Assembly: GCA_963817955.1 (NCBI GenBank)
Contig: CAWFQK010000002.1
Location: 448,001 to 512,000, forward strand
Direction: 5' to 3'
Length of the DNA stretch: 64,000 nt
Source of the DNA: an uncultured Gemmatimonadaceae bacterium
Lineage (GTDB): Bacteria > Gemmatimonadota > Gemmatimonadetes > Gemmatimonadales > Gemmatimonadaceae
In this document: in pieces, positions 9,827 through 31,234 of the stretch
Layout: every line of letters starts with the position of its first letter
Position numbering within the stretch: position 1 is the stretch's first letter
Notes under the pieces: generated by a model
What the model was told of the DNA's origin: nothing
What the model saw: only the letters and a program-made list of their open reading frames with translations
The model's database searches: none
Position numbers and translations under genes: made by a program

Positions 9827-11065
9827 CTACCACAAATCCCCTACCGTGATCGTCCACCGTGGCGCGATGGATCCGTGTCCCCCCAACCCGTGTCCCACGG
9901 CAAGGCCTGATTGATTCACGAAGACCGGCGCATCGAAACGCACGTAGACGTCGCGATCGTAGAGTCTTCCCCGGGCGATCAGACCTGCGCCAGCATCCGT
10001 GAGTAGCGCGTTGTCGAGCGCGATCTGCCTCGATGAGGCAATACCGGCATCGCCGAAGACGCTCACGGACAGGGAGCCGCGCCCCCACGAGCCATGCGCG
10101 CTCGCCACCTGCTGCACGACTTCCCCGTTCGCTGCCACGACGCCATCGAGCGGCACATCGAAGCCGAATCCGCGGAGACCCGCACCGCCGATCGGCAGAT
10201 AGTTCACGCCGCTCTGTTTGAGGAGTGCACCGCGCGGACGGAAGAGATCGTTGTTGAAAGTCTCGAACGGATCGGATGACGAGGCAAAGATCGCCCGCTG
10301 TCGGGGCGCGTTGTGCGCCAACCCGCCATACACGCGCACGTGGAGCTGCGAAGTCGTGCTCACGAGCGAGCGCACCAGCCCCAACGAGCCCTCGGCGCGC
10401 AGATAGCCGCGCGTTGGCTCGGCGGTCGTCGAGGAGTTGTCCGACGCCAACCCTCCGGCGAGGGAAGCCCGCACGGTCGTGTATTCGCTATCCGCAGTGA
10501 CCACGCTTCGGTAGGCGCCCGAACCACCGATTTCTGCCACGTTCGCATTCGACCACTGCTCCGGCAGCAACAGCGAGTCACTCGGCATCGCGACGGTGAC
10601 GTATGCCTTGGCCGTGATCGCCGGCCCCGGATTGAAGATGTACGGGCTCAGATCCCACTTCCGGAACACATCAAGCTTGAGCAGACCGTCGAGGTAATTG
10701 AACGCGCCGCCATAGTCCATCAGCGGGCGCTCCATTCCGGGGAGATAGAGGTTCTCCGCTCGCGCCCACACCTGCGCGCGAGTCGCGATGCTCGGCGACT
10801 GGCCGTTCGATGCGCGCGGCGCGCGCGTAGCGAATGCGATGCCGCCGTCGTAGATGTCGACTGTCGACAAATAATTGGTCTTGGCACGAATGCCGAACAC
10901 CGCGCCCTGCGGGTCGCTGTACCATGCAGCGGGCGCGAGCGCCACGATGGTGTGCGCTCGGTCGGTCTGATTGAGGTATGGCCAGTTGTACGTGATCCGC
11001 GGCTCGCGCACGCTGATCAGAAGACTGGCGTTGATGTCGTTGCGCCTATCCCAGTCCCACGTCAC
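9827..11065 (-). CDS. C-terminal outer-membrane beta-barrel (Omp85-like) part of the frameshifted M1 peptidase gene
   Basis: Amphipathic strands, GLRGFG and VFGDAG motifs, terminal Trp; becomes in-frame with the upstream ORF if one base at 11077/11078 is removed. Confidence 0.6.
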   Translation of the reverse strand: MTWDWDRRNDINASLLISVREPRITYNWPYLNQTDRAHTIVALAPAAWYSDPQGAVFGIRAKTNYLSTVDIYDGGIAFATRAPRASNGQSPSIATRAQVWARAENLYLPGMERPLMDYGGAFNYLDGLLKLDVFRKWDLSPYIFNPGPAITAKAYVTVAMPSDSLLLPEQWSNANVAEIGGSGAYRSVVTADSEYTTVRASLAGGLASDNSSTTAEPTRGYLRAEGSLGLVRSLVSTTSQLHVRVYGGLAHNAPRQRAIFASSSDPFETFNNDLFRPRGALLKQSGVNYLPIGGAGLRGFGFDVPLDGVVAANGEVVQQVASAHGSWGRGSLSVSVFGDAGIASSRQIALDNALLTDAGAGLIARGRLYDRDVYVRFDAPVFVNQSGLAVGHGLGGHGSIAPRWTITVGDLW

Positions 11066-12917
11066 GTGGTTCGGGTCCGAGCTGCACCAACAGTGGGCGG
11101 TCCGGCGTGAACACGTGCACGTAACTGTGATCCATCAGCGGATCGCCCCGGGCAACCGTCCATCCCGCGGAGGTCAACACCCCGACCGGCATCGGATGCC
11201 GCAACTCGCCACGGCGGTCCACGCGCGCGATCGTCTCGTACCGCGTGCCGTCGGTATTGACGCCCACAGGTCCGAGCGCGTAGTCCATCAATCCCGTGCC
11301 GTGCACCCACTCGTCGAAGAACCAGCCGAGCGGGCGGCCGTAGGCGCGTTCGGCCGATGCGCGCATGGCGCGCTCGTCCACGTGCTTGAGCGCCCAGCGG
11401 TCATAGTAGTCATGCAGGAAGGCGTGGAACACCGTGTCGCCCATGGCATCGCGAAGCTGTCCGTACATCAACTTCGCACGATTGTAGATCATTTCGTTAT
11501 AGATCCCAAACTCGCGAAAATCGGCGGAATTCGTACCGATGGGTTGTGCGCGCCCGTGTACCTCGAGCGACCACTGCGAGAGGTTCGTGCTGTCGTTCCC
11601 CGGAATCGTGACGGCATTCACGCGATACCCCTCCGGCAGCCGCGGCGGCTCAAGCACCCGGCCGATTCGCTCCTGCGGTGTGAGACGCTGCGCCCAGTCC
11701 GTCTGGTAATCCGTGAGCCCCTCGTCCATCCAGCCAGACCTCCACTCATTGTTGGCGAGGATGCCATAGGTGAACACGTGCCCGCTTTCATGGAGAATGA
11801 GCCCCTGCGACGCCGATCCGTCCATGATCATCATGGGAAACTCGGTGCCGCCGGGATCGAGGCGATGCACGTTCGAGAGCTGCGGATAGGCGTACGGTCC
11901 CCAGATCGACTCGAGCCAACGGAGCGCGAACATCGTGCGCTCGAGCGCGCGTCCGCCGCCCCACGTGCTGTCGTCGCCTGCCTTGTACAGCACGTGCACC
12001 GCAACCGTGTCCCACGTGGGGAAATGCATCCGGCCGACGTGTCGGACATACACGCCGCCCTCATAGCGATAATCCGGCGACGCACTCCAGGCAAAATGAT
12101 GCACGTTCTCGGCAACGAATCGCACGGCGCGGTAGCCATCGGGAACCACCAGCGCACTGCCGGCCGGCTGCTCACGATAGGCGCTCGCGGCCAGATGGGG
12201 CGGTCCATTCCGCGACACCCGCGCCCATCCTGGATCGCCGGACACGGGAACACCCGTGGACGCCAGGACCTGATCGTCGCGCACGATCATGGTCACGTCG
12301 TAGGTGCCGAACTCGCCGTACAGCTCGCCGGCCGGGATGAGCGGGTTTGGTTCCCAGCCGCCGCGATCGTACACGGCGACCTTCGGATACCACTGGGCGA
12401 AATCCCACGTGCGGCCGCGGCGCCCCTGTCGGCGTGTCACCGTGGACGGACGCGCGTCCCACGCAAAGTGAATCTGCACCGAATCGCCGGGCGGGAGAGG
12501 CTTCGGCAGGCGGAAGTGCATGACGGTGCTGTCGGGCGTGCCGGGATAGTCGATGATTACCGGCGTGCCGTTGACGGTCGGCGCCTGCGTGAGTCGTTCG
12601 TAGCCGAAATTCGGTTCGGCAAGATACTGAAAGCGAACGCGGTTTTCGCGGGCGTCGGCCGCGCTCCACTTGGAGCCTGGACGAAACGCATTCAGGTACT
12701 GGTGGAAGTACATCTCACGCAGCGTGTCGGGCGATTGGTTGGTGTACACCAACGTGCCATCCGCGCGCAACTTGGTTTGCGACTCGTCGAGCGTGGCGAC
12801 GATCTGATAGTGCACGTGCTGCTGCCAATAGCCGGTCGTGTCGCCGGAGGGCGGTGTCGTCGCGCCCTGATAGGTGCCTTGCTGAAGCAGAGCGAGCAGT
12901 CCGAGAAGCTGAATCAT
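11046..12917 (-). CDS. M1 family zinc aminopeptidase (N-terminal part; frameshift near 11077)
   Basis: GGTEFP, HESGH-x18-E (WMDEG), YWQQ, YNRA; hydrophobic N-terminus. Confidence 0.9.
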   Translation of the reverse strand: MIQLLGLLALLQQGTYQGATTPPSGDTTGYWQQHVHYQIVATLDESQTKLRADGTLVYTNQSPDTLREMYFHQYLNAFRPGSKWSAADARENRVRFQYLAEPNFGYERLTQAPTVNGTPVIIDYPGTPDSTVMHFRLPKPLPPGDSVQIHFAWDARPSTVTRRQGRRGRTWDFAQWYPKVAVYDRGGWEPNPLIPAGELYGEFGTYDVTMIVRDDQVLASTGVPVSGDPGWARVSRNGPPHLAASAYREQPAGSALVVPDGYRAVRFVAENVHHFAWSASPDYRYEGGVYVRHVGRMHFPTWDTVAVHVLYKAGDDSTWGGGRALERTMFALRWLESIWGPYAYPQLSNVHRLDPGGTEFPMMIMDGSASQGLILHESGHVFTYGILANNEWRSGWMDEGLTDYQTDWAQRLTPQERIGRVLEPPRLPEGYRVNAVTIPGNDSTNLSQWSLEVHGRAQPIGTNSADFREFGIYNEMIYNRAKLMYGQLRDAMGDTVFHAFLHDYYDRWALKHVDERAMRASAERAYGRPLGWFFDEWVHGTGLMDYALGPVGVNTDGTRYETIARVDRRGELRHPMPVGVLTSAGWTVARGDPLMDHSYVHVFTPDRPLLVQLGPEPRDVGLG

Positions 12918-12955
12918 GGTCGAATTGTATCTGCAAGCCCGACTAATTTCAGTGC

Positions 12956-13786
12956 ATGGCACTTTCCCGCCCCAACGCGCTCGCCCCAATTGTCGGCGGC
13001 ACCTGGCACGTCACACTCGCCGCCATCGTCCTCGTCGTCGCGGCGGCGGCGGCGATGGGGCAGACGCCGGCCACGATGCCCTCCGCGCGCGTCACGCTCC
13101 AGATCGACTCAGCCACCGTCGCGCGCTTCGATGCGCGGTCGTTCGACCTCGGCGTCACGCAACAGGCGCCATGGCCCGACGGGTCGGCGGCGGCGGCCGA
13201 GATTCAGTTCGTGAAACAGGCCGGCGCGTTCTCGGGGGACCTCATCCGTCTCGGTGCGAGCGGCGCCCGCGCGCCGTCCGGCACGATCGAGGTGCTTGAC
13301 TCGCTCGGCGCCGCGACGCTGACCGTTCACCTCAGCGACGTGGTCGTCGTTTCGGATCACATTTCGTTGTCCAGCGCTCGGGTGGCGCTCGAGCAGCAGC
13401 GCATCTCGCAGCAGGAGACGCTGACGCAGCTCAACGCCGACTCCCAGGAAGCGCAGCGGCAGCTTGCCACGGCGGAAGAACTTGGCAAGAGCCATGTCAC
13501 CACGCGCCAGGATCTGGCCCATGCGCGCGCAATAGCGTCGGAACTCCAGCAGCGTCTGGAGCTGGCGCGCCAGCGACAGGCGTTGCTCGTGCGACAACTT
13601 CAGGCGCAGGGCGCGCTGGACGAAACGGTCGTGTTGCACTTCGGCCGACTGGAAATCGACAGCCCAATGCCGGGCGGGCATGCAAGTTGGGATTTCAGCA
13701 CCGGCCGACGGACGGCGCCGACACCAGATTCGGTGTCACGGCGCGGTCCGGGGCGGCCCAACGCCGCACCGCCCCTGCGGCCGTAG
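12956..13786 (+). CDS. Secreted Hcp-fold-like protein with inserted coiled-coil hairpin (hypothetical)
   Basis: Signal-peptide-like segment; Hcp-like blocks FDLGVTQ, IQFVK..FSGDL..G, VHLSDVVV, ETVVLHFGRL, SWDF; Q/E/R/L-rich insert at aa ~139-219. Confidence 0.55.
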   Translation: MALSRPNALAPIVGGTWHVTLAAIVLVVAAAAAMGQTPATMPSARVTLQIDSATVARFDARSFDLGVTQQAPWPDGSAAAAEIQFVKQAGAFSGDLIRLGASGARAPSGTIEVLDSLGAATLTVHLSDVVVVSDHISLSSARVALEQQRISQQETLTQLNADSQEAQRQLATAEELGKSHVTTRQDLAHARAIASELQQRLELARQRQALLVRQLQAQGALDETVVLHFGRLEIDSPMPGGHASWDFSTGRRTAPTPDSVSRRGPGRPNAAPPLRP

Positions 13787-14026
13787 CCGTTCAGGACGTC
13801 GCGTCAGGCGGACTCGAGCACGTGGCGCTGGCGGACTGAACCCGTCCTCCGCGCGGTGAGAGCTTGCTCAACCCATGTGCGATGTCAAACGCAAGTCCGT
13901 ATTCCCGCATGACCTGACACGAGAATCCCGATAGGCAAGACGAACGCGCCACGTACACTGGAATGCGTTCGCTTTTCCCATTCAACGGCTGGTCGAGTTT
14001 GTTTACAGTCGTCACAAGGAGGAATT

Positions 14027-14242
14027 ATGAATGAGATGAACAAGGATGAGCTGATCAAACAGGTCACGCAGCACGCGGGAATTCCGGCCGACAAGGCGAA
14101 GCTCGCAGCGGACTCGGTCGTCACGTTTCTCAAGTCGAAGCTGCCGGCACCCGTCGCCGGGCAGATCGACTCGGTAACCGGGGGCCGGTTCGCCGACGTC
14201 ACCAAGAAGGCCGGTGACTTCATGGGATCGAAGGACAAGTAG
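14027..14242 (+). CDS. Small helical hypothetical protein
   Basis: Strong RBS AAGGAGG upstream; MNKDELIKQV..AGI...KAKLAADSV resembles the HU N-terminal helices/DUF2267-like proteins; followed by a terminator. Confidence 0.75.
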   Translation: MNEMNKDELIKQVTQHAGIPADKAKLAADSVVTFLKSKLPAPVAGQIDSVTGGRFADVTKKAGDFMGSKDK

Positions 14243-14255
14243 TCGTCCGAAGAAG

Positions 14256-14294
14256 AAAACGCCCGGGAGGCTCTCAGAGCCTCCCGGGCGTTTT
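14256..14294. terminator. Bidirectional intrinsic terminator
   Basis: AAAACGCCCGGGAGGCTC-TCA-GAGCCTCCCGGGCGTTTT between convergent genes. Confidence 0.9.
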
Positions 14295-14331
14295 CAGCAC
14301 ACGTCATGGCGTCGCCACGGACGCCGATCCG

Positions 14332-17010
14332 TTACGGCACGACTGCCGCCTTGCTTTCCTTCTGGACCGGGTTCTTCACGTAGATGTCGAACCACGCGAT
14401 CCACCGCGCCCACTGGTCGAGGTCGGACTCGCGCGTCGCGGGGCCGTGATCCTCGTACGGGTACATGAACAACGCCGCCTGCTTCCCCTGCCCCTGCAGC
14501 GCCTGCATCATGCGAATCGAGCTGATCGGGTCGGTGCCGACGTTCTGATCTTCGAGCGAGTGGTACATGAGCAGCGCACCACTCAACCGGTCGGCATACA
14601 GGAACGGCGACATTTCGAGGTACGTGTCCTTGGCGTCCCACAACGTGCGACGTTCGTTCTGGAAGTTGAACGGCGTGAGGGTACGGTTGTACATGCCGTC
14701 GCCGGCGATGCCCGCCTTGAAGTACGGTGTGTGGGTCATCGCATTCACGGTGCTGAACGCCCCATAGCTATGGCCGCCGATTCCCACGCGACCACGGTCG
14801 AGGTAGCCAGCCTTCTCCACCGCCTCGAGGGTGAGATCGAGATCCTCGCGTAGCTCGTCCACATAATGGTCGTTCATGCGCCCAGCCGGCCCAACGATCG
14901 GGATGTCCACCGGTTGAATGACGACGTACCCCTGCGTCACCCAGATTTCAGGGCTGCGCGGCGCAACGTTGGCGAACTGATTGATGTTCGTCGTGCGACG
15001 ACGCTGATCGTACTCGGCCTGCGTCGAGAATTCCGTCGGATAGAACCAGATGATGCCCGGCAGACGCGTGCCCTCGCGATAATCCTTGGGCAGCGTGACG
15101 TCGATATAGAACTTGTAACCGTCCCGTGGACGTTCGACGAGCAAACGCTTCCGAATAGCCTGCGTCACCTCGGGCGCGACGTCCACATTCTTCGTGAGCT
15201 TCGTTTCGCTCCCGGTCTTCATGTCGCGCAAATACGAATCGGAGATCATCGACGGCGACTGCCGCAACACGATCGCCTTGTTGTAGTCGTCGTCGAGCGG
15301 CGCAACGACATCTTCCGCGACGTCACTCGTTCCTTCGTACAGACGCGTCTTCTGCCCGCTCTCGAAGTCGACGCGATCCACGAAGTTGTGCGGTGCCTGC
15401 TTGTTCCAGTCGGGGAAGTACTTGGTGCCCTCGAGAAAGACACTCTTGTTATCGGAGGCCACCCGCACGACCGGCACGCCATTCGCTCCGCGCTTTGTCT
15501 GGAGCGCTCCCGGGTTGTTGAAGAACGCCGAGTCGCTCACATTGCCGCGACCACCGCCGGCGCCACCCGCTCCACCGCGGCCGCCGCGGCCAGCAGCGAT
15601 CGAGGCGCCCTTCGCAATCTCGTAATGCTTTGCCGGATCCGCGAGACGAACCGCGTACAGATCGGTCCCCTCAGCCACGAACAGCGTCTTGCCGTCTGGG
15701 CTGAACTCGGCGGACGTGATGCGACTGTTCGCCTCGAAGATCTGTTTGGCGTCATTCGCACCAAAGGGCGGCAGCCACGTGTACAGCCGATCCTTCCGCG
15801 CCGCCGTCGCGCCGCCCCGGCCACCGCGACCGCCCGCCGGCGCTGCGCCACGTTGTCCGCCAGTGCCGGCTGCCGGCGCTTCGGACAACAGGTACACCAG
15901 ACCCGGGCCAACCGGATTCCACTGCAGGTTGCGCTTGGCAGTATCCGACTGCGCGCCGCCGCGTCCACCGAACCCGCCAGTCGAGTCGCTTCCGCCGGCC
16001 GAACCTTCGTTGAGCGGGCGCTTCGCCAGTACCGTGATCACTTTGCCAGTCGCGTCCCAGAGCTGCTCCACGGTGCCGAAACTCGTGACCTGCACGAGAT
16101 ACGAGTAGGGCCTCACTTGCAGCGTGACGCGGAAATACTGGCCATCGGGCGACGCATCGACGGCTGTGATGAGCGCCGGCGCGCCGATCTTCTTCACCGC
16201 TTTGGATTTCACATCGATGAGCGCAAGCTGACCGAGCGTGTAGTAGTCGAGTAAATCCTTGTCGTACGGGTCGCGCAGCAGGCTCGCGTAGTTGCGGTTC
16301 TGGAGCACCTTGCCCGCCTCGCTCGTGCGCACGAGCGGCCCCGTCTCGATCGCTGGCCGTTTCGGCTCGGCGGGACGGTTGTCGGGGAGTAGCACGGCAA
16401 CGATGCACTTGCTGTCCGCCGTCCAATCGAGCGTGGTCACGCGAGTGGCAAGCAACGGCGTCTTCGTGATCTGCACCGACTTGCCCGTTGCGACGTCGGC
16501 GACATAGACGTGCGTAGCCGCGTCGAAGCTGGCGATGTAGGCGATCGATTTGCCGTCGGGAGACCACGTCGCCCCATTCACTACGGCGCCTTTGGGCGTC
16601 TCGATCGCGCGCGCTGCGCCGGTGTTGGGATCGAGAATGGTGAGGCCGATGCTCCCGCGCGTGGTGAGCGCACGGACCCGATTGGCCTTGAAGTCGATCT
16701 CGAGGCCCGCGAGCCGGTAATGAGGCTTACCGAAGACGTCCACGGAGGGCAGCCCATCGTTCTCCGCCTTCAGGAAGAAGCGGTTGTCGGGGCTGGGGTT
16801 GGTGAAGGCAACGCCATTCCGCGGCGCCGTGACAATGCGCTCGACGATCTCCGGCGGCTTGACGTAAGTCTCTTTGGCGAGGACTTCCTTCGGATTCCAC
16901 CCTTGTTGGGCGACGTTCTGGGCGCCGAGAGGTAGGGCGAATGCCGCGAGACCGGCGGCGCCGATCATGAAGCGCGTCAGGAGGCGCTTCGGCGGGGAAA
17001 AGCGGTTCAT
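14332..17010 (-). CDS. S9 family prolyl oligopeptidase-like serine peptidase, exported
   Basis: Signal peptide, WSPDG/ASPDG/FSPDG propeller repeats, nucleophile motif GGHSYGA, catalytic D (EDQNV) and H (EDHG). Confidence 0.9.
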   Translation of the reverse strand: MNRFSPPKRLLTRFMIGAAGLAAFALPLGAQNVAQQGWNPKEVLAKETYVKPPEIVERIVTAPRNGVAFTNPSPDNRFFLKAENDGLPSVDVFGKPHYRLAGLEIDFKANRVRALTTRGSIGLTILDPNTGAARAIETPKGAVVNGATWSPDGKSIAYIASFDAATHVYVADVATGKSVQITKTPLLATRVTTLDWTADSKCIVAVLLPDNRPAEPKRPAIETGPLVRTSEAGKVLQNRNYASLLRDPYDKDLLDYYTLGQLALIDVKSKAVKKIGAPALITAVDASPDGQYFRVTLQVRPYSYLVQVTSFGTVEQLWDATGKVITVLAKRPLNEGSAGGSDSTGGFGGRGGAQSDTAKRNLQWNPVGPGLVYLLSEAPAAGTGGQRGAAPAGGRGGRGGATAARKDRLYTWLPPFGANDAKQIFEANSRITSAEFSPDGKTLFVAEGTDLYAVRLADPAKHYEIAKGASIAAGRGGRGGAGGAGGGRGNVSDSAFFNNPGALQTKRGANGVPVVRVASDNKSVFLEGTKYFPDWNKQAPHNFVDRVDFESGQKTRLYEGTSDVAEDVVAPLDDDYNKAIVLRQSPSMISDSYLRDMKTGSETKLTKNVDVAPEVTQAIRKRLLVERPRDGYKFYIDVTLPKDYREGTRLPGIIWFYPTEFSTQAEYDQRRRTTNINQFANVAPRSPEIWVTQGYVVIQPVDIPIVGPAGRMNDHYVDELREDLDLTLEAVEKAGYLDRGRVGIGGHSYGAFSTVNAMTHTPYFKAGIAGDGMYNRTLTPFNFQNERRTLWDAKDTYLEMSPFLYADRLSGALLMYHSLEDQNVGTDPISSIRMMQALQGQGKQAALFMYPYEDHGPATRESDLDQWARWIAWFDIYVKNPVQKESKAAVVP

Positions 17011-17107
17011 TGCGTACTCCACGAATGGGGCGGCGATCGGAGGAGACATATTGGGTCAGACGAGATATACGATATACGACGCCTCGGCGCAGGACGCTGT
17101 GGCGGGG

Positions 17108-17158
17108 GGACACCGGACACCGGACACCGGACACGGGACAACGGGACAACGGGACAAG
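17108..17158. repeat. Intergenic 7-8 bp tandem repeat
   Basis: GGACACC x3, GGACACG, GGACAACG x2, GGACAAG. Confidence 0.9.
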
Positions 17159-17195
17159 AAAATCCCGGCCGCAGGTGGAGGCGAGCCGGGACTTC
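17156..17195 (-). terminator. Intrinsic terminator after atpH
   Basis: Minus strand TCCCGGCTCGC-loop-GCGGCCGGGA followed by TTTTCTT. Confidence 0.75.
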
Positions 17196-17249
17196 GATGA
17201 CTACGAACGACCAGCAGCAACCACGAACGACCAGCGGCCCAACCAGCGC

Positions 17250-17792
17250 CTACCTCCCCGCCAGCATCTTCGACCGAAGCGTTGCCAAGCGGCGACGAAC
17301 GGAGCCATCGAGGACGGTTTCACCGACACGCACGATGACGCCGCCCAGGATGCCAGGATTCACGTGGAAGTGCGGCACCACGTCCTTGCCGAGAGTGCGC
17401 GAGAGCTGTGCGACGATGAGCTGACGGTCCGCATCGTCTGCTTCGCGGGCCACCGTGACTGACGCATGGATGCGACCTTCGACCTGATCCACCAGGTCGT
17501 GATACGCTTGCGCGATCGTCGGGATCAGCATCTGGCGGCGGTGGCTCACCAGCGCCTGCAGAAAGCGTACGAAGTTGCGGGGCAACTGCCCGCCGTACGC
17601 TCGCTGGATGATCTCGTTCTTGCGCTGGGCGCTGGCGCGCGGCGACTCGAGGAACATGCGGAGCCGACGATCGGACTCCATCGCGTTGGCGACGGAGTCG
17701 ATCATCTCGCCCCAACCGCGCAAGTCGCCCGCTCGTTGCGCCAGTTCGAGCAGCGTCTCGGCGTAATTCCGAGCGATCGTTGGCTCGCGCAT
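17250..17792 (-). CDS. atpH: ATP synthase F1 subunit delta
   Basis: IARNYAETL, ILGGVIVRVGETVLDGSV. Confidence 0.95.
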   Translation of the reverse strand: MREPTIARNYAETLLELAQRAGDLRGWGEMIDSVANAMESDRRLRMFLESPRASAQRKNEIIQRAYGGQLPRNFVRFLQALVSHRRQMLIPTIAQAYHDLVDQVEGRIHASVTVAREADDADRQLIVAQLSRTLGKDVVPHFHVNPGILGGVIVRVGETVLDGSVRRRLATLRSKMLAGR

Positions 17793-18385
17793 TACTGGCT
17801 GACCTGCAGCGAACCGATCGAGGAGAGATACGCCTCGACGAGCTGACGGTTCTTCGCGCTCTCGAGGTTCTGCTCGATCACCTTGCTGGCGCCGGCGAGC
17901 GCGAGGTCCACTGCTTCGCGGCGGAGCTGGATGATGGCGCGCCCCTTCTCCGTTTCAATGTCACGGCGGGCGCGCTCCAGCATGTCCTGCTGTTCCTTGC
18001 GCGTGTGATCCAGGAGGTCAGCGCGCATCTTCTCTGCGAGCGCCCGTCCGTCGGCAATCAGCTTCTGCGCCTCGCCGCGCGCGGCGTCGAGTTGCGCCTG
18101 ATGCTGGCGAAGGAGCTCGGCGGCCGCGTCGCGGTCGCGCTTCGCGCCCTCGATCGCGTCCTCCAACGCCTTCTCGCGTGCTTCGACGGCCTTGGTGATC
18201 GGGCCGAACGCGAACTTCGTGAGAATGAAGAAGAGGACGACAAAGATTATGAGCGTCCAGAACATCAGATTGATCTGGAGGCTCACGAGGCTGCCACCAC
18301 CGCTCGCGGCATGTCCGCCTTCCTGGGCGAGCGCGGCGGTAGCGTTCAGCGCGAGAAGCGCGACAGACAGCGAAAACTTGCGCAT
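17792..18385 (-). CDS. atpF: ATP synthase F0 subunit b
   Basis: FWTLIIFVVLFFILTKFAFGPI..REK followed by a long coiled coil; position in operon. Confidence 0.95.
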   Translation of the reverse strand: MRKFSLSVALLALNATAALAQEGGHAASGGGSLVSLQINLMFWTLIIFVVLFFILTKFAFGPITKAVEAREKALEDAIEGAKRDRDAAAELLRQHQAQLDAARGEAQKLIADGRALAEKMRADLLDHTRKEQQDMLERARRDIETEKGRAIIQLRREAVDLALAGASKVIEQNLESAKNRQLVEAYLSSIGSLQVSQ

Positions 18386-24263: not shown

Positions 24264-25457
24264 CTACGCCGCGCGCTTGGCGTGCTGCCTGACAGCCAGG
24301 AACAACACGATCGGAGCATAGATCACCAGCACGAGCAGTGGATGCACCAGATCCCGCACGCCCGCGCCCTTGAGCAGCACGTCCCGGGCGATGGTGATGA
24401 AATGGCGCACGGGATTCAGCTCCGAGACCATCTGCACCCACCCCGGCATGCTGTCGATCGGCGTGAACAGCCCGCTCATCAACAAGTACACCATCATGAC
24501 GAAGAACGTGACGAACATCGCCTGTTGCTGGGTATCGACGATCGCCGAGATATAGAGGCCAATGCCGAGGGCGGAGAGCAGGTAGATGCCTGCCGCGGCG
24601 AACAGCAGCAGAGGGTTCCCCACGATGGGCACGTGATAGACGGCAACCCCTACCGCAAGCCCCACCGCCAGATCCAGCATCGCCAGCACCCAGAACGGGA
24701 GCAGTTTGGCAATGATGAATTGGCCACGCGTGATCGGCGTGACGTTGAGCTGCTCCAGCGTGCCCACTTCCTTTTCGCGGGCGATGTTCTGCGCCGTGAG
24801 GAGGGTGCCCATCATCGTCACGAGTTGTACCAGGATTCCCGGCACCATGTAGTGGGTGTAGTCGAGCTCCGGGTTGTACCAGCTACGCCGCTGGACTTCT
24901 ATTCTTGGCACGCCGCGGATCGGTATGAGCGCGCTCACACCGCCACGCCCGCTGCCACTGGTGCTCTGCGCACGAATGGCCGCCAGGGTCGGCCGCATTT
25001 GCGTCGTCAGCTCCCCGGAGTAGGCGTCGAGAATCTGCATGGCGTATGACTGGACGATTCCCGCCGCAGTCCCCTTTTCCGCGTTCACGTCGAGCTGCAC
25101 CGGCGCCGTCCCAGTGCGTACGAGTGTGGCCTCGAAGTCGTGCGGGATCGTGAGCACGATCGTCGCCGTGCCGTGCAGCAGTGCGTCGTCCGCACTGTCG
25201 GGCGACGTCGACTGCCCAATGATGCTGAAGAACCGAGAGGCAGCGAGGCGGGTGACGACGCCGCGCGACGTACTCGTCCGGTCGTAATCGACCACGTACG
25301 CTGGCGTGGCGTGGATGGCGAAGCTAGCGACCCGGGCCAGGACCAGGAGCTGCACGATCGGCATCACCAGGATCTGCGTGAGCGTCGCGCGATCGCGCGT
25401 CACGTGGAGCACCTCCGTGCGCGCGAGAAAGAGTATCCGTCGAAGGCCGGTGTACAC
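24264..25457 (-). CDS. ABC-2 type permease (YbhR-like)
   Basis: WYNPEL, IAREKEVGTLEQLNVTP, LMSGLFTPI. Confidence 0.9.
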   Translation of the reverse strand: MYTGLRRILFLARTEVLHVTRDRATLTQILVMPIVQLLVLARVASFAIHATPAYVVDYDRTSTSRGVVTRLAASRFFSIIGQSTSPDSADDALLHGTATIVLTIPHDFEATLVRTGTAPVQLDVNAEKGTAAGIVQSYAMQILDAYSGELTTQMRPTLAAIRAQSTSGSGRGGVSALIPIRGVPRIEVQRRSWYNPELDYTHYMVPGILVQLVTMMGTLLTAQNIAREKEVGTLEQLNVTPITRGQFIIAKLLPFWVLAMLDLAVGLAVGVAVYHVPIVGNPLLLFAAAGIYLLSALGIGLYISAIVDTQQQAMFVTFFVMMVYLLMSGLFTPIDSMPGWVQMVSELNPVRHFITIARDVLLKGAGVRDLVHPLLVLVIYAPIVLFLAVRQHAKRAA

Positions 25458-25458
25458 G

Positions 25459-26571
25459 TCAGTCCAGCCGCGGCTTGAATGAGCGGGTGCTGATGACGAG
25501 GAGCACCAGCGTCATCGTGGCCAGGATTGCCGTCTCACGCCCGAGATACGCCAGGCCGATTCCTTTGAGCATGATCCCGCGGGAGATCGCCACAAACCAC
25601 CGGGCAGGCGACAGTACCGAGATCCACCGCAGCACGACCGGCATGCTCTCAATAGGGAAGATGAAACCGGACAACAGCACGTTCGGCAGCATCGTTCCGA
25701 GGAGCACGCCCATCATGGCCGTCCGCTGTGAATTGGTCCGCGAGGACACGAGAATTCCCACCGACAGCGACGCCAACGTGAACAACAATCCTTCTGCGAC
25801 GAGCAATGTCACGCTACCGCGCAACGGGACGTGAAAGATCAATCGCGCTTCCACCAAGATCAGTACTATGCTCAACAGCCCGATCCCGAGATACGGCGCC
25901 ACCTTGCCGACGATGATGTGCCACGGCCGGAGCGGCGAGACGAGCAGCGCCTCCATCGTCCCCGTTTCCCGCTCGCGTGCCAGCGACAGCGCGGTCATCA
26001 GCGCCGAAATGATCGTCAGCACGTACGCCATGAGTCCCGGTATGAACAGGTTCGAGCTCTCGCGCGTGGGATTGAATCGCATCCGGCTCTCCGGCGCAAT
26101 GCGTATCGCGCCGACGCCGCGCTGGGCCGCACCGAGCTCGCGCTGATAGTTCTGGATCACGGCCGCCGCGTACGCCTGGCGGGCCGCGCCGCTGTTCGGC
26201 TCTGTCGCGTCGGTGATGAGAGAAATTTGCGCCGGCAGTCCGCGTGCGAGCTGCGTGGCAAAGCCGGGCTGAAACACGACCGCTTCCTGTGCACGGTCCG
26301 TGCGGAACAGTGGCTCCAACTCGCGCTGGTCGCGCAACACCGCAACCACGCGGAACACACCGCCCGCCGTAAGCCGGGAGCGCAGATCCAGCGTCGTCGC
26401 ATCCGGCGTCGGATCCACCACCGCGAGCCGTACGTCCTGCACGTCGGTGCGAATGGAGTACCCGAACAACACCACCTCGAGCACCGGTAGCAGCACGAGC
26501 ACGGCAAGTGTGCGACGATCGCGGAGGATGTGGCGCACCTCCTTCACGAGGAGCCCGCGCAGCGCGCTCAT
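25459..26571 (-). CDS. ABC-2 type permease (YbhS-like)
   Basis: KEVRHILRD, ARERETGTMEALLVSP, LLSGFIFPI. Confidence 0.9.
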   Translation of the reverse strand: MSALRGLLVKEVRHILRDRRTLAVLVLLPVLEVVLFGYSIRTDVQDVRLAVVDPTPDATTLDLRSRLTAGGVFRVVAVLRDQRELEPLFRTDRAQEAVVFQPGFATQLARGLPAQISLITDATEPNSGAARQAYAAAVIQNYQRELGAAQRGVGAIRIAPESRMRFNPTRESSNLFIPGLMAYVLTIISALMTALSLARERETGTMEALLVSPLRPWHIIVGKVAPYLGIGLLSIVLILVEARLIFHVPLRGSVTLLVAEGLLFTLASLSVGILVSSRTNSQRTAMMGVLLGTMLPNVLLSGFIFPIESMPVVLRWISVLSPARWFVAISRGIMLKGIGLAYLGRETAILATMTLVLLVISTRSFKPRLD

Positions 26572-27341
26572 GCGGCTTCCGTGGGCTTCACGGTTCCGTT
26601 GGCAGGCCGGGCCAGTCGCACGAACAGCTCGTCGATGCTCTCCACATCAAAGCGGCGCTTGAGCTCCGCCGGCGTGCCCAGGGCGCCGATCCGCCCCGCC
26701 ACCATGATCGAGATGCGATCGCAGTACTCCGCCTCGTCCATGTAGTGAGTCGTGACAATTGCCGTCGTTCCGGCCTGTGCGGCCTCATAGATCAATTCCC
26801 AGAACTGCCGGCGCGTCACGGGGTCCACGCCGCTCGTCGGCTCGTCGAGAAACACGATGCGGGGCTGGTGCAGCAGCGCCACCGAAAATGCCAGCTTCTG
26901 TTTCCATCCCAACGGGAGGTCTCGTACCATGGACCGCTCGGCGCGCTCGAGTCCCAGCCGTCCGAGAATCCGATGCATGCGCTCGACTATCTCGCGGTCG
27001 CTGAGGTCGTAGATCCCCCCATAGAGCACGATGTTCTCACGCACCGTGAGATCGTCGTACAGCGAGAAGCGCTGACTCATGTAGCCGATGTCCCGCTTGA
27101 TGGCTTCCGCTTCCGTGTACACGTCGTGTCCGGCCACCGTCGCATGACCGTCGCTCGGCGCGAGCAGCCCCGTCAGCATGCGCATCGCTGTCGTCTTCCC
27201 TGCGCCGTTCGCGCCAAGGAAGCCGAACACCTCGCCAACGCGAACGTCGAAGGTGATGCGGTCAACGGCGGTGAATTCGCCGAATCGCCGCGTCAGGTCG
27301 CGCGCGTCGATGGCGAGCGAAGGGCTTGCCGCGTTCGTCAT
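26568..27341 (-). CDS. ABC ATP-binding protein (resembles the YbhF second domain)
   Basis: GANGAGKTT, LPLGWKQK, FLDEPTSGVDP, THYMDEAE. Confidence 0.92.
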   Translation of the reverse strand: MTNAASPSLAIDARDLTRRFGEFTAVDRITFDVRVGEVFGFLGANGAGKTTAMRMLTGLLAPSDGHATVAGHDVYTEAEAIKRDIGYMSQRFSLYDDLTVRENIVLYGGIYDLSDREIVERMHRILGRLGLERAERSMVRDLPLGWKQKLAFSVALLHQPRIVFLDEPTSGVDPVTRRQFWELIYEAAQAGTTAIVTTHYMDEAEYCDRISIMVAGRIGALGTPAELKRRFDVESIDELFVRLARPANGTVKPTEAA

Positions 27342-28312
27342 GCGGCCTCCCCGGGTGTTGCAGCGTCTTCTCCCTCAGGGGCACCCATGCGGGCGATGAA
27401 CACGTCTTCGATCGTCGGCGACGTGGGCGACACCTCGGCCCCAGCGATCCCTTCGGACGCCAGAAAGGCGCCCAACTCCCGCTGCACAACGTCCGCGGAC
27501 ACATCGGCCCGCTCGTCGGTGTAGTGCAGCGCTTCGCCGAATGGGTACACGGAGTGCGCGTGGGCAAAGCGACGCACCGCGCCCAGTGTGCGATACCGCT
27601 CCGGCGCGCGTACGGCGAACAGCGGCCGCTCGAAAGAGCGGATGATCGCGGCGGGCGTGTCGATGGCCAGGATGTGCCCGCGCTGGATGAGCGCGACGCG
27701 ATCGCAGCGCGTCGCCTCATCCATGTACGGCGTCGATACGACGATCGTGAGACCGGACTTCCTGAGCTCTGCCAGCAGATCCCAGAACTCCCGTCGGGAT
27801 ACCGCATCCACACCGGTCGTGGGCTCATCGAGCAGGAGCAGCTCCGGCCGGTGCACGAGCGCGCAGCAGAGCGCGAGCTTCTGCTTCATGCCCCCGGACA
27901 ACGCGGCGGCGCGCCGATCTTTGAACGCCACGAGCTGGTCATATATAGGCGCGATTCGCGCGTACTGGTCCTCGATCGTCGTTCCGAATACCGATGCGAA
28001 GAAGCGCAGGTTCTCCTCCACGCTGAGATCGGGATACAGCGAGAACCGTCCCGGCATGTAGCCGAGTCGTTTGCGAAGATCCCACATGTCGGTCACGACG
28101 TCGCGTCCCAACACCTGCGCCTGACCCTCGTCGGCTACCACGAGCGTGGCAAGAATGCGGAACAGTGTCGTCTTCCCTGCTCCATCGGGGCCGATGAAGC
28201 CGAACAGCTCTCCGGGGGCCACACTGAACGACACGCCGGCGAGCGCCGTCGTCGTCGCGTACCGCTTGGCGACGTCATGCACCTCGACGGCCGCGCCCGC
28301 TGACGTCGTCAC
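27338..28312 (-). CDS. ABC ATP-binding protein (resembles the YbhF first domain)
   Basis: GPDGAGKTT, LSGGMKQK, LLDEPTTGVD, STPYMDEA. Confidence 0.92.
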   Translation of the reverse strand: MTTSAGAAVEVHDVAKRYATTTALAGVSFSVAPGELFGFIGPDGAGKTTLFRILATLVVADEGQAQVLGRDVVTDMWDLRKRLGYMPGRFSLYPDLSVEENLRFFASVFGTTIEDQYARIAPIYDQLVAFKDRRAAALSGGMKQKLALCCALVHRPELLLLDEPTTGVDAVSRREFWDLLAELRKSGLTIVVSTPYMDEATRCDRVALIQRGHILAIDTPAAIIRSFERPLFAVRAPERYRTLGAVRRFAHAHSVYPFGEALHYTDERADVSADVVQRELGAFLASEGIAGAEVSPTSPTIEDVFIARMGAPEGEDAATPGEAA

Positions 28313-29235
28313 CGGGCTGCGACCACTGGCACAAATCGCACGTCCGCGGGCATGCCAATCTTTAGAATACCTTTCTCGTTGGGCACGCGGATCTTGATCG
28401 CGTACACGAGATTACGCCGCTCGTCGACCGTCTGGATGGGGGTTGGCGTGAACTCAGCGTCAGACGAGATCCACGACACCTGGCCAGGCAGCGACAGCCG
28501 CGGTTCGGATCCGTTCGCCACGTCCACCGTGACCCGAGCCTCCTGGCCGAGCCGCACGTGTGCGAGCTGAGGTTCGGTGACGTAGGCACGGAGCTCCAGC
28601 GTGTCGAGATTCGCGATCTTGTATAGCGGCTGGCCGGGCTGGACGAACTCCCCCGCCTTGGTGTAGGTGGCCAGCACCGTTCCGCTCACCGGATTCGACA
28701 CCGCGCTCCGCGTGATCTGATCGCGCACCTGCGCCATGCGGGCGGCGTTCGACGCAACATCCTGGGTGGCGGACTGGCGCTGCGCGTGTGCAGCGTCGAG
28801 TTGCGCGCCGAGAACACGGAAGTCGCGCTCGGCCTGATCGAGCTGTTGAGCGGTGGCGGCTTTCTGGTCGAACAGCCGACGCGTGCGGTCGTACGTCCGC
28901 TGTGCGATCTGGCGCTGCACCTCCAGCACGCCGATCTGTTGCGTCACTTCGTTGACGTGCGACGCCGCGCCCGAGCGTTGTGCGAACACCTGCTGCAGTT
29001 GGAGCAGCAGCGGCGTCGTATCGATCACCGCCATCGGCACGCCGGCCGCAAGCCGATTCCCCTCCACCGGAACGAATTTCAGCAGACGCCCCGACGTCTC
29101 GGCGCCGACGACGACTTCTGTGGCCTCCATGTTCCCATAGGCATCGGGAGCGGGACCGCGCGCGCAACCGGCCAGCGCGAGCATCGCGACGAGCCCACTC
29201 ACCGTGTGCCTCGACTGAGTCCAGAACATGTTCAA
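28309..29235 (-). CDS. HlyD family membrane fusion protein (YbhG-like)
   Basis: Lipobox LAGC, lipoyl-hybrid halves, alpha-hairpin, AEFTP..IQT..ER..LVY, LKIGMPA. Confidence 0.92.
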   Translation of the reverse strand: MNMFWTQSRHTVSGLVAMLALAGCARGPAPDAYGNMEATEVVVGAETSGRLLKFVPVEGNRLAAGVPMAVIDTTPLLLQLQQVFAQRSGAASHVNEVTQQIGVLEVQRQIAQRTYDRTRRLFDQKAATAQQLDQAERDFRVLGAQLDAAHAQRQSATQDVASNAARMAQVRDQITRSAVSNPVSGTVLATYTKAGEFVQPGQPLYKIANLDTLELRAYVTEPQLAHVRLGQEARVTVDVANGSEPRLSLPGQVSWISSDAEFTPTPIQTVDERRNLVYAIKIRVPNEKGILKIGMPADVRFVPVVAAR

Positions 29236-30554
29236 TGCACCTCCAAGCCAAGCGTCGTCAAGAAGTGGGCGCGCGTCTGCGTGAGGTCTATACGATGCTG
29301 CGCGCGCGCCAGTCGAGCGGTGAGCAGATCGGTGCTACGGTCGGTGTAGTCGGCGGCCGTCACGACTCCTTCTTCGAACCGAATGCGCGTCTCGCGCTCC
29401 ACCAATTCACGCAGGGCAATGATCCGGTCGTCGGCGGCGAGCGTGGAGTCGAGCCGTGCGATGGTGGAGACGTCGCTCTCGATGCTCCGCCGGATCTGGC
29501 GCGTGAATGCCGCCTCGTTGGTGGTCACGATGTCCCGCTGTAATGCGAGGACCTCACGATCGCGCGATGTCGAGCCCCACGTCCAAGGCATCCACTGCAC
29601 CTGCAGACCCGCCAACCAATACGTCTCGAAGCTGGTGTTCAGCATGTTGAGTCCGGGACGTCCGTAGCCCCACCGGCCAAACGCCGAGAGCTTTGGCTTG
29701 TCCTGCGCGGCATCGACGGTTTCCTGCGTCGACAGACGCGCACGAGTGGCGGCAAACTGCGCATACTCCGGCCGGGAGCGGAGCCCATCGACCGCATTCG
29801 AAGCTTGCGCCGATTCAGCCACGAGATCCGAATATCCAAGACGTACGTCGTCCGCGACGGGCCGCCCGATCAGATCTCCGAGCCGCGCCAGCGCGGCGTG
29901 TCGGTCGGCGCCAAGCTGCAGTGAGTCTTGCTGGCGCTGTAGCAGCGTCGCGGCAAGAATGGCCGTGTCGCTCGGCAATGCCGTGCCACCGCGCACACGA
30001 TCGCGCGCATCGCGGAGCCGCTCCCGGAGGTCCTGCATCGCAATCTCGACCTCCGTGGACCTTGCCTGTAGCGACGCGGCAGCAAAGAATGCGTCGTTCA
30101 CCTCCTGGCGTAGTCCAAAGAGAGTGGCGCGTACCTGCGACTCCGATTCCGCGAGCTGCGTGCGCTCGAGCGCTTCGCGTGGGGAGATGGTGGGGTCGAG
30201 GATCGGTTGCTGCGCGTTGACGTGTCCGTCGTACGTATCGTGCGGCTGCGTGGGGATGTGCAGATTGGGCGGAAGCGCTGCGCTGAAGCCCGTGACATCG
30301 GATTGATACTGTCCCTGTCCATTGATGCTGAGCGCTGGATACCAGCTCGTGGCCAACGTGCGCAGCCGAAGCGCGGATTGACGCGCTTGAAGCTCGAGCT
30401 GCCGGCCGCGCGGATCCGCCGCCACCGCTTGGACCTGGGCGATGCCGAGCGACAGGGAATCGCCGGCGATGGTCTGCTGTGCATTTAGCTGCGGCGTATG
30501 CACCGCAAGCATTGCGGCGCCGGCGAGCGCGGTGATCTGGTGCGTTGCTCTCAT
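29232..30554 (-). CDS. TolC family outer membrane efflux protein
   Basis: Signal peptide, two OEP-like repeats (GTALPSD; FEEGVVTAADY), operon context. Confidence 0.85.
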   Translation of the reverse strand: MRATHQITALAGAAMLAVHTPQLNAQQTIAGDSLSLGIAQVQAVAADPRGRQLELQARQSALRLRTLATSWYPALSINGQGQYQSDVTGFSAALPPNLHIPTQPHDTYDGHVNAQQPILDPTISPREALERTQLAESESQVRATLFGLRQEVNDAFFAAASLQARSTEVEIAMQDLRERLRDARDRVRGGTALPSDTAILAATLLQRQQDSLQLGADRHAALARLGDLIGRPVADDVRLGYSDLVAESAQASNAVDGLRSRPEYAQFAATRARLSTQETVDAAQDKPKLSAFGRWGYGRPGLNMLNTSFETYWLAGLQVQWMPWTWGSTSRDREVLALQRDIVTTNEAAFTRQIRRSIESDVSTIARLDSTLAADDRIIALRELVERETRIRFEEGVVTAADYTDRSTDLLTARLARAQHRIDLTQTRAHFLTTLGLEVH

Positions 30555-31234
30555 GGCCTGAGTCCCCTCAGGTAGAACTCGGGCAGCTCTTTCTTCCGGC
30601 GCGTGATGAAGCGGCGGAAGGCATCATCGTCCATCTGCAGGGCGAAGCCGAGCATGGGCCGGGCGACGAAGGGGAAGATGCAGAGGCCGAGCAGGTTGAC
30701 GATGAAGTCCTCAATGGCGATCGGGCGGATGGTACCGGCGCGCACCGCCGCTTTGACTTTGGCGTCGATCACCTTGAACACGCGCAGGCGCAGCGCGGCG
30801 AGGTCGACTCCGCCGCCGGCTTGCATGGCGCCGAGCAACCGCTCCGGATGTTGGTGCAGCTCGCCGACGACGTATGGCGCGAAATACGGGTGCTGGAGGA
30901 GGAGATCGAGATACAGCGCGACAATGCGACGCACGATGTGCTCGAGTGCGGCGTCTTCGGCAATGATCTCGGTGAGGGGCGGCACGAACGCCGAGGCGAC
31001 GCGGCCGAAAATGACGGCGGCGAGGCGGTCCTTGTTGCGGAAGTAGTAGTGGAGGAGCGCCTTGTTGACGCCGGCCTCGTCGGCGATCTCCTGCATGCGG
31101 GCGCCGGCGGTGCCGCGGCGGAGGAAGACCGAGTGGGCGGCGTCGAGAATGCGGGCCTCGGTATCGAGGTCGTGCGCGGCGGCGGTCGAGGGGCGGGTCG
31201 CCGTGCGGCGCCGCTGACCAGCGGGTTTAGCCAT
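30551..31234 (-). CDS. TetR/AcrR family transcriptional regulator
   Basis: RILDAA..F...G....MQEIADEAGVNKALLHYYFRNK. Confidence 0.95.
   Translation of the reverse strand: MAKPAGQRRRTATRPSTAAAHDLDTEARILDAAHSVFLRRGTAGARMQEIADEAGVNKALLHYYFRNKDRLAAVIFGRVASAFVPPLTEIIAEDAALEHIVRRIVALYLDLLLQHPYFAPYVVGELHQHPERLLGAMQAGGGVDLAALRLRVFKVIDAKVKAAVRAGTIRPIAIEDFIVNLLGLCIFPFVARPMLGFALQMDDDAFRRFITRRKKELPEFYLRGLRP

Follow-up and report, generated by a model that had tools for sequence, protein, structure and literature searches.

A putatively exported Hcp-fold protein with an inserted MacA-type adaptor hairpin in Gemmatimonadaceae

A stretch of 64,000 nucleotides from an uncultured Gemmatimonadaceae bacterium (assembly GCA_963817955.1, contig CAWFQK010000002.1, positions 448,001 to 512,000 of the forward strand; here called the window) carries a gene for a protein that, by sequence, joins two known kinds: the Hcp tube fold and the TolC-docking hairpin of membrane fusion protein (MFP) adaptors. 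Hcp-type tube proteins are cytoplasmic parts of contractile injection machines, and to our knowledge TolC-docking hairpins occur only within adaptors anchored in the inner membrane. The protein, referred to below as the Hcp-hairpin protein, very probably has the architecture of an exported Hcp fold with an adaptor hairpin inserted into it. The best reading of this architecture, which we hold to be evenly balanced between right and wrong, is a soluble periplasmic ring whose MacA-like hairpin barrel would dock on a TolC-type channel. Full-text literature searches, whose coverage leaves subscription journals aside, returned no description of an exported Hcp protein with an adaptor hairpin; a preliminary description of the gene, made from the sequence alone, had likewise not recognized the architecture as one already described.

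The open reading frame (ORF), which has the limits and length first assigned to it, is, to judge from its relatives, a real and conserved gene. Scoring of 8000 candidates gave 95 relatives at E ≤ 0.001, and 1.84 billion cluster representatives, scanned exhaustively, yielded 53 at E ≤ 0.001, of which 40 reached E ≤ 1e-10 and 13 reached E ≤ 1e-30. The scan placed no restriction on length, and none of its matches at E ≤ 1e-10 is a fused form (all are at most 271 residues long); matches of 1087 and 418 residues cover the tail alone or the hairpin alone. A source organism is given for four matches and is Gemmatimonadaceae or Gemmatimonas, and the relatives go under the database name “hypothetical protein”. 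Two alignments were used throughout, A1 with 38 close relatives and A2 with 33 diverse relatives. In both, the helical insert is kept in all full-length members, no part of the protein is better conserved than the hairpin, and four residues are invariant: R168 and L176 within the hairpin, E223 and L227 directly past it. The monomer predicted by AlphaFold2 (mean pLDDT 82, with 162 residues at 90 or above) consists of strands within residues 44–137 and 222–246 and two helices, residues 140–178 and 184–217.

The beta domain is an Hcp domain by predicted fold and profile homology. The Pfam model T6SS_HCP (PF05638) matches the window protein alone below its cut-off (14 bits against 23.5, E 0.064) and reaches E ≤ 1 in 20 of 38 relatives, with a best value of 2.3e-7. 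Against the sequences in the PDB, the A1 profile finds Pseudomonas aeruginosa Hcp1 (1y12) as its best match (E 0.026), aligning the segment EIQ..VVVS to residues 55–112 and LDET..EID to residues 122–149 and thereby flanking the insert, while the A2 profile finds the same protein at E 3.1e-6, followed by matches that are all Hcp. The HMMER profile thus recovers, on either side of the insert, the blocks that the preliminary description had recognized by eye as standing in the order of Hcp proteins. Structural comparison of the model agrees: the top Foldseek matches in the PDB are all Hcp (E 2e-6, target-normalised TM 0.57–0.74), and VIA-align superposes residues 41–248 of the model on Hcp1 with Z 15.7 and a root-mean-square deviation (rmsd) of 3.1 Å over 124 aligned residues. 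An independent structure search of all representatives returned the same top matches as VIA-align. Among the structure-search matches listed, no solved chain spans both the beta domain and the hairpin.

The insert lies between strands 120–137 and 222–229 of the model, directly before the ETVVLHF strand, where a helical segment had been expected from the sequence. A hidden Markov model (HMM) of the hairpin alone, made from the A2 columns for residues 139–220, was run against the six-frame ORFs of 60 residues or more from the 4.53-Mb genome to which the window belongs, 43,595 in all. It gave a single non-self match below E 0.01, at E 7e-10, with the next best at 0.14. The matched ORF encodes a 432-residue HlyD_3/HlyD_D23 protein, a MacA-like MFP, and its gene is followed by that of an ATP-binding cassette (ABC) ATPase whose best matches are DarD, MacB, and LolD-type models. 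In a sample of the phylum that takes in the unpublished genomes G157 and G182, the full A2 profile matches 149 of 401 genomes at E ≤ 1e-5. Among the matches listed, two are full-length (G000 and G283) and three cover the beta part only (G214, G157, and G258); the others consist of the hairpin part alone, inside frames mostly of 415–450 residues, with a best E of 3.8e-18. All ten host proteins of hairpin matches that were examined are HlyD-family adaptors.

Alignment of profiles leads to the same adaptors, with hhalign pairing A2 with the adaptor of genome G283 at 97.7% probability (E 2e-12) and with the MacA-like adaptor of the window's own genome at 79.9% (E 1.4e-5). In a joint hairpin alignment of the 33 family members of A2 with 21 MFP hairpins, 30 of the 33 and 20 of the 21 run through all 82 columns free of insertions and deletions. 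Conserved residues are common to the two sets, including L145 (30/33 family members, 21/21 adaptors), R149 (28/33, 19/21), A166 (32/33, 21/21), R168 (33/33, 21/21), L176 (33/33, 20/21), R200 (31/33, 20/21), and R207 (28/33, 20/21). These alignments indicate that the insert is homologous to the hairpins of MacA-like MFP adaptors and is not a generic coiled coil. A search of PDB sequences with the A2 profile returned no adaptor at E ≤ 10; the likeness is therefore closest to the lineage's own adaptors and not to those of the E. coli type. In the model, the hairpin (residues 138–220) superposes on residues 97–179 of E. coli MacA with an rmsd of 1.5–1.6 Å over 83 residues, and also on residues 95–175 of AcrA. 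The superposition fixes the register of the modelled hairpin and shows that it equals the MacA hairpin in length.

The preliminary description had arrived at an MFP-type hairpin by a different comparison, with the HlyD-family protein encoded in the window itself (28309–29235, −). Its register is reproduced by hhalign over 52 columns with 25% identity, at a probability of 3.3% and E 0.013, barely above chance, and this ORF is not listed by the hairpin-only HMM at E ≤ 10. The window's HlyD protein was rejected as the relative of the hairpin, and the idea of an MFP-type hairpin now finds its support in the MacA-like adaptors described above.

The tip of the hairpin bears on docking. MacA, AcrA, and MexA carry at their hairpin tips a TolC-binding RLS motif, RxxxLxxxxxxS, which takes the form RLT in HlyD, and single substitutions in the motif are reported to impair TolC binding (PMC3391258). 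In the Hcp-hairpin protein, the spacing L176-x6-T183 matches the motif. Position 183 is serine or threonine in all 38 close relatives, in 21 of the 33 diverse members, and in 16 of 21 MFPs, and the invariant arginine, R168, stands four residues before the motif position in the family and in the related adaptors alike. The RLS motif would thus be partly present, in the same manner as in the lineage's bona fide adaptors. If the corresponding positions are L135/S142 in MacA and L132/S139 in AcrA, which we take to be the numbering, the register places L176 and T183 there. Two divergent members of the family, one in genome G283 (L012:5518-6225, +) and P0139, have a six-residue insertion exactly at the hairpin tip (..EALAALEPRERTRL..), which would lengthen or reshape the docking tip.

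The N-terminal segment resembles a signal peptide, with a 16-residue hydrophobic stretch (residues ~19–34) followed by A-M-G↓Q and, by sequence, no lipobox cysteine; in most close relatives of A1 the segment closes with A-x-A↓Q. Under a crude rule (a Kyte–Doolittle value of 1.6 or more over 12 residues and, after it, an (AGSTVC)-x-(AGS) site), a hydrophobic segment and a small-x-small site are found in 33 of 38 members of A1 and 32 of 33 members of A2, in keeping with the signal-like segment noted at the outset. At least two of the misses, P0084 and P0095, start inside the beta domain, so that these entries are truncated at the N-terminus or have mis-called starts. Because the rule is a heuristic and not SignalP, export of the Hcp-hairpin protein is inferred.

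The gene is separated from type VI secretion system (T6SS) genes. The T6SS and tail models PF05638, PF05943, PF05947, PF04984, PF05954, and PF05591 have no match in the whole assembly, which is 94% complete and carries one copy of the gene, so that no Hcp, TssB, TssC, TssF, VgrG-type, or sheath match was obtained; the earlier remark that the window contains no T6SS or phage tail genes thus extends to the assembly. Full-length members at E ≤ 1e-20 were found in 20 of 401 sampled genomes of the family; these carriers fall in 9 of 77 genera and include 3 of 14 genomes of the window's own genus. The distribution is patchy and resembles that of an accessory gene. TssC occurs in 7 of the 19 other carrier genomes, always on a different contig, and 12 of the 19 lack it. 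When ORFs of at least 100 residues from 15 contexts of the gene were clustered, common neighbours were found only among close kin (the window, L001, L002, and L007), and the genes of the other contexts are unrelated to one another (DUF3108 with OPT, DsrE-like with MFS, MOSC with a racemase, and a response regulator). With no common neighbours beyond close kin, the gene therefore stands alone, as the word “orphan” in the preliminary description had implied.

A protein of the possible precursor type is found in genome G214, where L010:8082-8558 (+) encodes P0144, a 158-residue Hcp protein that lacks the hairpin and whose N-terminus is signal-like (..CASAVQAQ↓R). P0144 passes the Pfam Hcp cut-off with 46.9 bits, its gene lies between those of an OPT oligopeptide transporter and an amidohydrolase, and its genome has no TssC match. 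The beta domains of P0144 and the Hcp-hairpin protein align in hhalign at 96% probability (E 4.9e-9). P0144 has three close kin, which like it carry the source annotation “type VI secretion system tube protein Hcp”, as well as several Hcp relatives at a greater distance whose N-termini are hydrophobic. The P0144 group shares with the Hcp-hairpin protein the related beta domain, a hydrophobic N-terminus ending in A-x-A↓Q, and the status of a lone gene, and differs from it in that a short loop, with no hairpin, joins the two strands. P0144-type proteins therefore appear to resemble the precursor that received the hairpin, and the simplest history suggested by the sequences is the insertion of a complete MacA-type hairpin into an already exported Hcp protein. 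Exported, T6SS-independent Hcp proteins may form a small family of their own.

Self-association was modelled with four copies of residues 42–250 and alignment A1. The model scored 0.63, and the best of three controls scored 0.00. In calibration, 20 of 30 proteins solved as same-chain pairs and 1 of 23 solved as single chains reached the mark; these counts are only rough for this model because the calibration was run with two copies and with alignments made by the tool. Contact agreement between the four-copy runs was at least 84%, with a partner pLDDT of at least 77. Two sets of contacts are predicted with confidence: strand 132–138 pairs with strand 62–69 of the neighbour, and helix 140–172 packs along helix 185–214 of the neighbour. 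The contacts run along the full length of both helices, and the hairpins are therefore parallel in the model. If the assembly is cyclic, the hairpins would project from one face as a barrel, and we consider a ring with a hairpin barrel to be somewhat probable. The ring-type and barrel-type contacts of this model would fit the Hcp ring presenting six hairpins that had been proposed from the sequence, whose closure and six-fold count stay conjectural.

From these elements the following mechanism can be proposed. The Hcp-hairpin protein would be exported through the Sec pathway and remain soluble in the periplasm, where copies of it would line up laterally in the manner of Hcp rings, the presumed number being six by analogy with Hcp rings and MacA barrels. 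The parallel hairpins, as packed in the model, would associate laterally into a MacA-like helical barrel, and the tips of the barrel, bearing R168, L176, and S/T183, would dock, tip against tip, at the periplasmic end of an outer-membrane factor (OMF) of the TolC family. Candidate partners are available, since the genome has 31 OEP-repeat matches that correspond to about 16 OMF (TolC-family) genes. Because the protein lacks lipoyl, beta-barrel, and membrane-proximal domains and has no transporter partner, its role would be that of a transporter-independent cap or funnel: it would occupy the channel, gate it, or connect it to an open ring lumen through which periplasmic cargo could exit. Docking on a TolC-family channel falls a little short of an even chance in our estimate. 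The complete proposal, in which a periplasmic ring of the tail-tube fold with a MacA-type 12-helix barrel plugs TolC-family channels as a passive duct or as a gate or cap, is tentative and, taken as a whole, somewhat doubtful.

Part of this proposal had been reached in the preliminary description, which spoke of a repurposed periplasmic Hcp ring. The Hcp fold and the MFP-type hairpin in that claim have gained support, and its six subunits, TolC docking, and role as adaptor, plug, or conduit keep their conjectural standing. Where it had staked the claim on an Hcp match, a ring, and the retention of signal and insert among homologs, an Hcp match was found, the modelled contacts are of ring type, and the relatives retain both the signal-like N-terminus and the insert.

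Several observations weigh against a channel-docking ring. The score of the four-copy model may stem from resemblance to Hcp rings and MFP barrels of solved structure and not from binding. At the tip, S/T183 is replaced by alanine or proline in 12 of the 33 diverse members, and position 172, where the motif has its arginine, is arginine in 0 of 33 family members and 0 of 21 related MFPs. The structural match of the hairpin is generic: hairpins of seryl-tRNA synthetase, SMC, and designed proteins also reach Z 10–11, and for this reason the match was rejected as evidence of MFP identity. No conserved OMF or transporter neighbour was found in the 15 contexts, and export is predicted by the N-terminal heuristic. 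Leakage through the outer membrane could also follow from an open ring set on an open channel, so that a conduit role needs gating, of which none was seen.

Among the alternatives, the one that survives best, though we regard it as unlikely, is another role of the ring and barrel in the envelope, unrelated to TolC-type channels, such as a spacer or tether, or a receptor or decoy for phages or bacteriocins. The patchy, accessory-gene-like distribution, the varied neighbourhoods, and the lack of an identified partner would all suit such a role. The conservation of the protein, however, is concentrated on hairpin positions that are common to OMF-docking adaptors, and searches with Pfam and NCBIfam models gave no peptidoglycan-binding or membrane-anchoring module.

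In Skp (OmpH) and prefoldin, helical hairpins are inserted into a beta body that serves oligomerisation, and Skp is periplasmic. The same outline, in which a small beta domain for oligomerisation in an exported protein carries an inserted hairpin, raises the alternative of a “jellyfish” holdase whose helical tentacles would cradle unfolded outer-membrane or secreted proteins, an alternative that we judge improbable. The Pfam model OmpH (PF03938) weakly matches 4 of 38 relatives (best E 0.019), and prefoldin appears in the fold list with Z 9.9 for the hairpin. Both matches are at the level of a generic coiled coil, however, and Skp is absent from the VIA matches listed. The hairpin is specifically homologous to MFP hairpins and not to that of Skp, the modelled hairpins pack side by side over their full length instead of being splayed, and a patchy distribution (20 of 401 genomes) would be odd for a general chaperone.

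The closeness of the hairpin to one adaptor family, whose genes adjoin those of MacB/DarD-type ATPases in both cases examined, and the lateral packing residues common to the two hairpins suggest a further alternative, a modulator of MacA-like pumps. Its hairpins would intercalate with those of the adaptor or displace them, tuning or blocking ABC-type tripartite assembly. We think this, too, a long shot: the copies of the protein are predicted to pack hairpin to hairpin with one another, which in a closed ring would leave no free lateral face; the gene is unlinked to pump genes; and it is rare where the MacA-like adaptor occurs in many genomes (2 against 149 of 401 in the phylum sample).

The remaining alternative, a specialised T6SS Hcp whose N-terminus is not a signal peptide and whose hairpin is an effector or adaptor module on a tube or carrier subunit fired by the T6SS, has in its favour the real homology and fold, the precedent of extended Hcp proteins, and the TssC genes of seven other carriers, and is nevertheless very improbable given a 94% complete genome devoid of T6SS components, the twelve other carriers without TssC and the separate contigs of the rest, the conserved signal-like N-terminus, and a hairpin barrel on one face that should block head-to-tail stacking.

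A docking ring would differ from both of its parent systems. With Hcp/TssD (PF05638; P. aeruginosa Hcp1 1y12 and enteroaggregative E. coli Hcp1 4hkh), the Hcp-hairpin protein shares the fold, detectable sequence homology, and the predicted contacts between neighbours through edge beta strands. Unlike Hcp/TssD, it has a signal-like N-terminus by the heuristic above, carries the 82-residue hairpin between the equivalents of Hcp1 residues ~112 and ~122, and is encoded by a gene that is unlinked to T6SS genes and present in genomes without them. With MacA-type adaptors (E. coli MacA 3fpp and 5nik; the MacA-like adaptors of Gemmatimonadota, for example L009 and L011), it shares a homologous hairpin of equal length, the leucine and serine/threonine of the tip motif in register, and a predicted lateral packing of hairpins. 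Unlike these adaptors, it has an Hcp domain as its presumed oligomerisation scaffold and a displaced motif arginine; it lacks the adaptor body, and the models HlyD_3, HlyD_D23, and Biotin_lipoyl gave no match to the window protein at E ≤ 10. It also lacks a membrane anchor, a lipobox, and an operon with a transporter or OMF. From Skp (OmpH) and prefoldin it differs in showing no significant match beyond a generic hairpin and in having hairpins that are predicted to be packed.

As a natural graft of a hairpin onto Hcp, the protein suggests that the adaptor hairpin can serve as a portable docking module and the Hcp ring as a stand-alone six-fold scaffold. If the proposed mechanism is true, the contractile-injection tube fold would for the first time be seen re-used within the periplasm, and an OMF adaptor would for the first time be seen to do without any of the canonical adaptor body domains. 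Docking on OMFs, if true, would add a new class of OMF adaptor, acting as a regulator or conduit in tripartite efflux and secretion, and would provide a small soluble tool to probe the opening of channel tips. Together, the insert-less exported Hcp proteins and the MacA-like adaptors of the lineage would make it possible to trace a domain insertion that created a new envelope protein. The positions of the features discussed are collected in Table 1.

Table 1. Features of the Hcp-hairpin gene, with positions counted from the first nucleotide of the window
Feature	Position	Strand	Basis
Whole coding sequence, putatively exported Hcp-fold protein with inserted MFP-type hairpin	12956..13786	+	ORF listing and translation; 276 aa + stop
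N-terminal signal-like segment, aa 1–35	12956..13060	+	Sequence and heuristic; putative signal peptidase I site A-M-G↓Q
Hcp beta domain, N-terminal part, aa 44–138	13085..13369	+	Model strands 44–137; aligns to Hcp1 1y12 residues 28–112
Inserted alpha-hairpin, aa 139–220 (82 residues)	13370..13615	+	Model helices 140–178 and 184–217; homologous to MacA-like adaptor hairpins
Hairpin tip region, aa 168–186, with R168, L176, and T183	13457..13513	+	Joint alignment of family and MFP hairpins
Hcp beta domain, C-terminal part, aa 221–247	13616..13696	+	Model strands 222–229, 231–235, and 242–246; Hcp1 residues 122–149
Low-confidence Arg/Pro-rich C-terminal tail, aa 248–276	13697..13783	+	pLDDT 53–56 in last three blocks

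The gene is flanked by a divergent gene for an M1-family peptidase (11046–12989, −) and a convergent gene for an S9 peptidase (14332–17049, −), with an F-type ATPase operon beyond the latter. The M1 peptidase, taken in its longest frame, extends over the start of the Hcp-hairpin gene (12956, +). If the peptidase instead starts at an internal Met (~12917), before a signal-like segment of its own, the divergent gap would be ~38 bp, and the promoters of the two genes must therefore overlap. Between the Hcp-hairpin gene and that of the S9 peptidase lies a 71-residue ORF (14027–14242, +) whose Lys-rich composition sets it apart from its surroundings; neither Pfam nor NCBIfam gave a match to it, nor did tblastn in L001–L007, which include the syntenic L001, L002, and L007, and it may or may not be a gene. 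A 412-residue ORF (9827–11065, −) has 71–73% identity to counterparts in L001 and L002 and no Pfam or NCBIfam match. No Rfam family was found over positions 11000–18000 of the window.

Genes for OPT oligopeptide transporters adjoin both a hairpin-Hcp gene (transporter at L004:3956-5878) and the gene of the insert-less, putatively exported Hcp protein (transporter at L010:5766-8030). A theme of peptide use, drawn from these transporters and the M1 and S9 peptidases, was set aside, the loci being too few to count.

Elsewhere in the window, an operon-like run on the minus strand (24264–31234) encodes a TetR regulator (30551–31234), a TolC-family OMF (29232–30554), the HlyD-family adaptor compared above, ABC ATPases (27338–28312 and 26568–27341), and ABC-2 permeases (25459–26571 and 24264–25457). 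Its OMF is one of the roughly 16 candidate docking partners.

The C-terminal tail of the Hcp-hairpin protein varies in length and is short or absent in many relatives in A1 and A2. In a subset of the close relatives of A1, a variable Arg/Pro/Ser-rich tail ends in a common ..(S)LRP.

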